DNA of 64,000 bases from Escherichia phage vB_EcoP_PE006 (OQ938541.1), one strand, 5' to 3'. Positions 50,896 through 51,374 are shown, counted from the stretch's first letter. Made by a program: numbers and translations. Notes: generated by a model not told the origin, from the letters alone.

Positions 50896-51105
50896 TTAAT
50901 ATTCTTTTACATAACAAACCACTAAGGTTCCCATTTCTGACAGTGTTGATTTATGTAAGCTTACTTTACTATAAATCTTTGGGGCCATCTTAAGAGCCTT
51001 CTTAAAACGGCGAGCATCTTTACGAGTAGCAAAGTGCTCTGTAACAGGTATAGCCGGGTCTTGGTAGAGGTAATATACCACCGTCCAATATTTTTTCATA
51101 ATCAA
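50896..51105 (-). CDS. small basic protein, member of a four-gene paralog family
   Basis: Shares KKxW...TR..AR..KK...SIHK...Y with 52959..53574. Confidence 0.45.
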   Translation of the reverse strand: MIMKKYWTVVYYLYQDPAIPVTEHFATRKDARRFKKALKMAPKIYSKVSLHKSTLSEMGTLVVCYVKEY

Positions 51106-51374
51106 ACACCTAGGGCAGTAGTTAAGAATGCTTTCAGGTTTGCTTCGGTCTGCATACCAGAGAGGCTGTAGTGTGTACCGCTGTTACGGTCAGGTACAAC
51201 GAAAGCAGGGATGCTACGAACCCCGTACTTAACAGCTTGTTCACGACCATCACCCTCAAGGATGTTAATCTCTTCCACTTCTACATCAAACTCCTTAACA
51301 ACCTTCTCAAAGGTAGGAGCCATTGCTTTACATGGAGCACACTGATCACTATAAAACTTAATTACTTTAGACAT
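51102..51374 (-). CDS. thioredoxin-like protein (start at internal Met of track ORF 51102..51428)
   Basis: CAPC redox motif and GVRSIPAFVV, resembling the thioredoxin CxxC and cis-Pro loop. Confidence 0.65.
   Translation of the reverse strand: MSKVIKFYSDQCAPCKAMAPTFEKVVKEFDVEVEEINILEGDGREQAVKYGVRSIPAFVVPDRNSGTHYSLSGMQTEANLKAFLTTALGV

Follow-up and report, generated by a model that had tools for sequence, protein, structure and literature searches.

A shortened thioredoxin in the nucleotide-metabolism block of Escherichia phage vB_EcoP_PE006 and a thioredoxin-binding-domain homologue in its T7-like polymerase

The window analysed here, 64,000 nt of Escherichia phage vB_EcoP_PE006 (OQ938541.1), encodes a genuine thioredoxin-family protein that is shortened at its N-terminus, and among related phages this protein follows a block of nucleotide and redox genes rather than the DNA polymerase. 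Its function is tentatively read, with a probability of roughly 0.42, as that of a redox-active member of the nucleotide-precursor module, which would be recycled by the thioredoxin reductase of the host (TrxB) and would mainly aid the host ribonucleotide reductase NrdAB. The phage polymerase is of the T7 gp5 type and carries in its thumb a shortened homologue of the domain to which thioredoxin binds in T7; the sequence-only reading that preceded this analysis had left the choice between a dedicated processivity subunit and a role in ribonucleotide reduction.

The phage thioredoxin

The thioredoxin ORF begins with an ATG, which an AAGGA Shine-Dalgarno sequence precedes by 5 nt. Its translation starts MSKVIKFYSDQCAPCK, with the CAPC motif at residues 12-15 and Ile55-Pro56 at the cis-proline position of thioredoxins. 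The product matches the Pfam Thioredoxin family PF00085 with E 2.6e-13 and a score of 50.3 bits, where the cut-off is 23.5, as well as phrog_22 ('thioredoxin domain'); its nearest solved structures by sequence are thioredoxins and PDI domains, and its identity to E. coli TrxA is 30% (E 5e-14). In the AF2 model (pLDDT 92.8), strands at residues 3-8, 32-37, 57-61 and 68-72 and helices at 13-26, 43-49 and 77-88 follow one another in the order β-α-β-α-β-β-α, which is the core of the thioredoxin fold. The best Foldseek matches of this model are E. coli TrxA entries (TM ~0.8, rmsd 1.6-2.0 Å), with C12-A-P-C15 and I55-P56 aligning to C32-G-P-C35 and I75-P76 of the E. coli protein. These matches are far above chance, and the thioredoxin-like gene with a CAPC motif that had been read from the sequence at this place is borne out to the exact ORF. 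Assignment as a glutaredoxin or as NrdH was weighed and discarded, as the best matches in both sequence and structure are thioredoxins.

The protein differs from cellular thioredoxins in several respects. It is 19 residues shorter than TrxA and is without the first ~20 residues (β1-α1) of cellular thioredoxins; its active-site motif reads DQCAPC, with Trp31 of TrxA replaced by Gln (Gln, Ser or Thr across the clade), and the buried Asp26 of TrxA is replaced by Lys6, a lysine that is invariant in the clade. The changes of Gly74 to Ser and Lys90 to Leu are likewise departures conserved in the clade, as is the loss of β1-α1, and Ala93 of TrxA is a Met in PE006. Neither the WCGPC motif, nor the buried Asp26, nor a five-stranded sheet with N-terminal β1-α1 was found in the PE006 protein, and it scores below the thresholds for a canonical TrxA equivalog, at 49.2 bits for TIGR01068 (cut-off 96.8) and 34.4 bits for NF006898 (TrxA; cut-off 138). 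The replacements of Trp31 and Asp26, the missing β1-α1 and the score of 49 bits against 96.8 make reduction by E. coli TrxB an assumption of the favoured reading.

A word-indexed homologue search with the thioredoxin returned 15 proteins, and an exhaustive one returned many short single-domain relatives with 35-50% identity, seen without their genomic context. Fifteen clade members, down to ~40-50% identity, show no variation at the two cysteines or the proline of CxPC, at the cis-proline position or at the residues corresponding to Arg73 and Gly92, a pattern that fits retained redox chemistry. The processivity of the T7 type is not known to need the cysteines of thioredoxin; their strict retention therefore points to chemistry. 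The retained equivalents of Arg73, Ile75, Pro76 and Gly92 could be counted in favour of a polymerase partner, as they belong to the interface of TrxA; however, the interface residues that are shared with TrxA are near-universal among thioredoxins and do not discriminate between the two models. The loss of Lys90, the partner of T7 gp5 Glu319, together with the Gly74 to Ser and Trp31 to Gln replacements, argues against docking in the T7 manner.

Source genome and gene neighbourhood

PE006 belongs to Kuravirus, the phiEco32-like podophages of C3 morphotype in the Gordonclarkvirinae. Identity of the window reaches ~97% with Escherichia phages 172-1 and NJ01, and it is 93-96% with numerous other Kuraviruses. 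Its thioredoxin is the same gene as gp65 of phiEco32 (ABY52866.1, in EU330206, 'thiol-disulfide isomerase and thioredoxin') and gp65 of SU10, with 97.7% identity to the phiEco32 protein over 88 of 90 residues and 98.9% to the homologue of phage 172-1; thioredoxins within this range of 97.7-98.9% identity carry annotation in many Kuravirus genomes. In phiEco32 and PE006 the gene holds the same slot between the Dps-like gene and thyX. An ORF of 67-69 aa, a phrog_4939 paralogue, separates trx and thyX in PE006 and 172-1, but not in phiEco32.

The surrounding minus-strand genes are collected in Table 1. The thioredoxin gene is linked to genes of nucleotide metabolism, lying between those for dCTP deaminase and ThyX in PE006 and in related lineages; such a neighbourhood is circumstantial support for a redox role in dNTP supply. 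The stop codon of the 58-aa ORF, placed 1 nt before the thioredoxin ATG, suggests translational coupling of the two; this small ORF is found in phiEco32 and is absent from some related lineages. The assignment of the Dps-like protein is weak, as PF00210 covers only ~54 residues and NCBIfam models score far under their cut-offs.

Table 1. Minus-strand features of the PE006 window in order of transcription; genes of the neighbourhood were assigned from ORF, Pfam and PHROG scans.
Feature	Position	Strand	Basis and remarks
Gamma-glutamyl cyclotransferase, ATP-grasp, glutamine amidotransferase and amidoligase cluster	58033-63878	minus	common to Bruynoghevirus and Grimontviridae
Primase/helicase	56023-57813	minus	
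3'-5' exonuclease subunit	55475-56029	minus	PF01612 E 1e-8; phrog_38876/403 'DNA polymerase exonuclease subunit'
Nucleotidyltransferase, 470 aa	54118-55530	minus	phrog_12715; weak match to poly(A) polymerase/CCA-adding head domain
dCTP deaminase (dcd)	53575-54108	minus	PF22769 E 3.5e-34; upstream member of dcd-Dps-Trx-ThyX block; synteny
Three small paralogous ORFs	52959-53574	minus	phrog_4939; 53377-53574, 53168-53377, 52959-53168
phrog_10984 ORF	52557-52886	minus	overlaps Dps-like gene
Dps/ferritin-like protein	52001-52600	minus	PF00210 E 2.7e-7; phrog_3636 E 2.9e-55; synteny
Two small ORFs, 61 and 59 aa	51565-51939	minus	
58-aa ORF	51376-51552	minus	phrog_19504; stop 1 nt before thioredoxin ATG
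Thioredoxin	51102-51374	minus	90 codons + stop; PF00085, AF2, Foldseek; = phiEco32 gp65
Small ORF	50896-51099	minus	phrog_4939 paralogue, between trx and thyX
ThyX, flavin-dependent thymidylate synthase	50224-50880	minus	PF02511 E 1.4e-43; conserved downstream neighbour
Nlig-Ia domain protein	49370-49693	minus	PF22745 E 2.7e-35
PhoH	48251-48994	minus	
Family A DNA polymerase subunit, exon 1	44580-46301	minus	573 codons to in-frame stop inside insertion; T7 gp5-like
Insertion in polymerase gene, ~608 nt	44003-44610	minus	contains HNH ORF
HNH ORF	44123-44518	minus	HNH_3 E 8.6e-12
C-terminal polymerase exon (DEGQFSV...NWMHTH)	43850-44002	minus	rest of motif C; blastn against phiEco32 polymerase 3' end, ORF translation, T7 alignment

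Several features of the region stand apart from the question of the thioredoxin. The phrog_4939 family is represented by four diverged paralogues (23-34% identity) encoding basic proteins of 65-69 aa, three of them in tandem after dcd and the fourth between trx and thyX. The Nlig-Ia protein, of 107 aa, is a stand-alone Ia (NAD+-binding) domain of an NAD-dependent DNA ligase without the catalytic core, and the nucleotidyltransferase gene sits between those for the exonuclease and dCTP deaminase. No tRNA genes were found in the 64,000-nt window, and a scan of the whole window with Rfam at the gathering threshold gave no match.

Ribonucleotide reductase was not found among the window ORFs of at least 120 aa scanned against Pfam and PHROGs in the minus-strand replication and metabolism region, and the annotation of the complete 172-1 genome, which is 97% identical, lists none. 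NrdAB or NrdDG are present in Privateer and some relatives. The thioredoxin is thus kept in a lineage that has no reductase of its own, which shows that its function is independent of a phage reductase and counts against the favoured reading.

The split polymerase and its thumb insertion

A T7-type polymerase had been placed in the same module as the thioredoxin, and such an enzyme is indeed encoded there in two parts on the same strand, the polymerase subunit ~4.8 kb downstream of the thioredoxin and the exonuclease subunit ~4.1 kb upstream. The family A polymerase is thereby split, with its 3'-5' exonuclease and polymerase subunits encoded ~9 kb apart. In a phmmer search of the PDB, the intact phiEco32 orthologue of the polymerase subunit matched T7 gp5 with E 1e-32 versus 1e-6 for Klenow, and a profile of 102 members of the polymerase family gave hhalign E values of 2.8e-71 for gp5 versus 7.5e-24 for Klenow. 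The AF2 model of the subunit encoded in the window (pLDDT 90.8, pTM 0.81) returned T7 gp5 at all of Foldseek ranks 1-27 (E 1e-16 to 1e-11), followed by Bst and Taq at ~1e-9. The PE006 subunit is therefore specifically T7 gp5-like, an addition to what was known before, and this closeness to gp5 among solved structures favours a thioredoxin partner. In comparison to T7 gp5, the subunit has extra segments at ~137-205 (helical) and ~310-365 (beta-rich).

The gene for the polymerase subunit is itself interrupted in PE006. The ~608-nt insertion falls within polymerase motif C, between VIDMH and DEGQFS, and contains an HNH ORF; phiEco32 and 172-1 have no such insertion. In a permissive Rfam scan it matched Intron_gpI at 28.7 bits (E 4e-5), under the gathering score of 50. 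Some T7-like phages have group I introns in their polymerase genes, and the PE006 insertion is likely to be another mobile intron of this kind.

Inspection of the thumb by structure prediction, which had been suggested as a check for a thioredoxin-binding insertion, did reveal one. Residues ~56-110, which follow the long thumb helix (31-55) and precede the FDPSK motif, form an ordered element (pLDDT >90) at a site that lies between thumb helices H and H1; they consist of a strand (59-66), a helix (78-87) and a second strand (98-104). Klenow has no counterpart of this insertion, whereas the T7 thioredoxin-binding domain (258-338) aligns with it, and the C-terminal, thioredoxin-contacting part of the T7 domain is clearly homologous to it. 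T7 gp5 residues Glu319, Thr327, Val329 and Glu330 have been reported as thioredoxin contacts (PMC5984650); all four are identical in the PE006 polymerase, as E92, T99, V101 and E102, and T7 Tyr326 corresponds to F98, a residue that does not vary within the family. The site, the order and the retained contacts of the insertion all speak for a polymerase that could bind a thioredoxin, and the presence of what alignment identifies as a homologue of the thioredoxin-binding domain counts against the favoured reading of the phage protein. On the other side, the insertion is ~22-30 residues shorter than the T7 domain and is missing its N-terminal basic loop, and the position of E102 is occupied by Trp in most relatives. 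A cysteine of the polymerase that stood opposite T7 Cys313 in the phmmer alignment was dropped from consideration, as the pairing was not reproduced by global alignment.

Distribution of the thioredoxin among related phages

The thumb insertion keeps its length and sequence over the whole polymerase family, including the Pseudomonas Bruynogheviruses with their genomes of 45 kb. The thioredoxin does not share this distribution. An HMM built here detected it in every C3-type locus and, at E values up to 1, gave no match in the Bruynoghevirus PaP_Se, of which the complete genome was searched. That genome and the window have in common the genes for primase/helicase, exonuclease, polymerase, 5'-3' exonuclease and the ATP-grasp, GATase and amidoligase proteins; dCTP deaminase, Dps, phrog_10984, thioredoxin, ThyX and PhoH are lacking from PaP_Se as a set. 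The joint absence of dCTP deaminase, Dps, thioredoxin, ThyX and PhoH indicates that the thioredoxin tracks the nucleotide and redox block and not the polymerase.

The arrangement of this block varies between lineages. A contiguous Dps-Trx-ThyX order downstream of dcd is shared by Kuravirus and two metagenomic lineages, the thioredoxins of the latter being 52-55% identical; the order in Privateer is dcd-Trx-x-Dps, with NrdA/NrdB 7 kb upstream, and in SE131 it is dcd-PhoH-Trx...ThyX-Dps. In a more distant lineage a 70-aa CGPC mini-thioredoxin is encoded just past a dUTPase/DCD gene. Two Lahexavirus-type loci have the polymerase with its insertion, dcd and Dps, and one of them, Aeromonas phage 4_4572, has thyX too; a syntenic thioredoxin is absent from both. 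In the 33.7 kb of 4_4572 that were examined, a single thioredoxin-like gene occurs; it adjoins nrdA, within the nrdA cluster. The Dps-like and phrog_10984 ORFs, which are conserved neighbours of the thioredoxin elsewhere, persist in these Lahexavirus-type loci.

Phage thioredoxin and polymerase insertion thus did not co-occur consistently across lineages, with Bruynoghevirus and the Lahexavirus-type loci as exceptions. The thumb element of the polymerase is independent of a phage thioredoxin, and the phyletic data do not convincingly tie the one to the other. Fold, motif, conservation, neighbourhood and phyletic pattern are all direct observations.

Possible functions of the thioredoxin

In the favoured reading, the shortened thioredoxin would be one part of a block with dCTP deaminase, the Dps-like protein and ThyX, and would be made together with the replication genes. 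The host thioredoxin reductase, TrxB with NADPH, would keep the protein reduced, and its CAPC dithiol would in turn reduce disulfides in client proteins, with ribonucleotide reductase as the likely main client; as the phage has no reductase of its own, this client would be the host NrdAB. A larger supply of dNTPs for phage DNA synthesis may be the outcome. The redox activity of the protein, its reduction by TrxB and the identity of its client are inferences. A benefit to the phage is not obvious, as host NrdAB is already served by TrxA and glutaredoxin.

In the main rival reading, the phage thioredoxin would instead be a dedicated processivity subunit that docks on the thumb insertion, freeing the phage from host TrxA. 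It would then clamp the polymerase on DNA as TrxA does for T7 gp5, and such a role could coexist with a redox one. This function, which has been suggested in print for Privateer (PMC7881722), is possible but on balance doubtful. To the structural points in its favour may be added that the thioredoxin is kept in all C3-morphotype phages, with or without an encoded reductase. The same insertion is nonetheless present in Bruynoghevirus, with a complete genome that has no thioredoxin, and in the Lahexavirus-type loci that have no syntenic one; host TrxA, moreover, is available and could occupy the same site. In the T7-like cyanophage Syn5, AlphaFold3 places host thioredoxins rather than the phage one on the thioredoxin-binding domain of the polymerase (10.1101/2025.10.05.680603). 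A wider form of the proposal, in which Kuraviruses and their C3 relatives would encode a minimal thioredoxin docking on the shortened domain of a split T7-like polymerase, as a fully phage-encoded pair, is unlikely; its conserved cysteines could make such a pair redox-gated.

General redox or oxidative-stress protection alongside the adjacent Dps-like ferritin, with no specific link to a reductase or to the polymerase, is a less probable role again and is considered quite unlikely. A stress thioredoxin would keep thiols reduced or feed the detoxification of peroxide, such as that which ThyX, a flavoenzyme, may produce. In every lineage with a thioredoxin of the Kuravirus type, the thioredoxin gene is a direct or near neighbour of the Dps-like gene; both are among the few genes common to all C3 phages (PMC4281155), and the authors of the Privateer study class the thioredoxin under stress response (PMC7881722). 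Gene neighbourhood is, however, all that speaks for protection, the assignment of the Dps-like partner is itself weak, and the window yielded neither a peroxiredoxin nor a methionine sulfoxide reductase as a partner. Very unlikely is a further alternative in which the protein serves some other client, for example in the folding or assembly of phage proteins, or is a dispensable accessory gene. Thioredoxins do serve many clients, and this one was detected by mass spectrometry in SU10 phage preparations with 52.8% coverage (PMC4281155); however, there is no pointer to a specific alternative client, and the conservation of sequence and position across lineages at ~40-50% identity argues for a selected function.

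Comparison with known systems

The usual role of phage thioredoxins is that of T4 NrdC, a hydrogen donor to ribonucleotide reductase. The PE006 protein resembles NrdC as a small phage dithiol protein encoded among genes of nucleotide metabolism, but differs from it in that the phage has no reductase and in that its fold and sequence are thioredoxin-like, with TrxA as the best structural match. The likeness to the E. coli TrxA/T7 gp5 pair (PDB 1T7P) extends to the thioredoxin fold (TM ~0.8), CxPC, the cis-proline and the Arg73, Ile75 and Gly92 equivalents on the one partner, and to a thumb insertion in the same place, with four identical contact residues, on the other. Unlike in that pair, the PE006 thioredoxin is phage-encoded and 30% identical to TrxA, the polymerase is split from its exonuclease, and the pair is putative.

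Syn5 offers a precedent for the favoured reading. Its thioredoxin also is without ~20 N-terminal residues, lies in a replication module beside a T7-like polymerase and invites the same two hypotheses. The absence of these N-terminal residues is shared by most phage thioredoxins; that of Syn5 is redox-active and raises genome replication, and the authors of this 2025-26 preprint favour activation of ribonucleotide reductase (10.1101/2025.10.05.680603). Syn5 has its own ribonucleotide reductase and a CGPC motif, whereas PE006 has no reductase and CAPC; redox activity and the gain in replication are measurements on the Syn5 protein.

The thioredoxin gene has been annotated since 2008 (phiEco32 gp65) and was listed in the SU10 study among the few genes in all five C3 phages then sequenced (PMC4281155), and its pairing with the polymerase was proposed in 2021, when the Privateer study raised the possibility that the phage-encoded thioredoxin joins the T7-like polymerase to make it more processive (PMC7881722). 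Both are thus already known. Literature searches returned no experimental work on a Kuravirus thioredoxin or on the processivity of the phiEco32 polymerase. What is contributed by the present analysis is the shortened thioredoxin-binding-domain homologue in this polymerase family, its independence of a phage thioredoxin, and the observation that the thioredoxin travels with the nucleotide-metabolism block. If the processivity role were true, PE006 and its relatives would provide the first phage-encoded counterpart of the partnership between T7 and host thioredoxin, and with it a processive polymerase, compact and self-contained, for use in biotechnology. If the thioredoxin instead feeds the host reductase, as is tentatively favoured here, it would be one more case of phages boosting dNTP supply.
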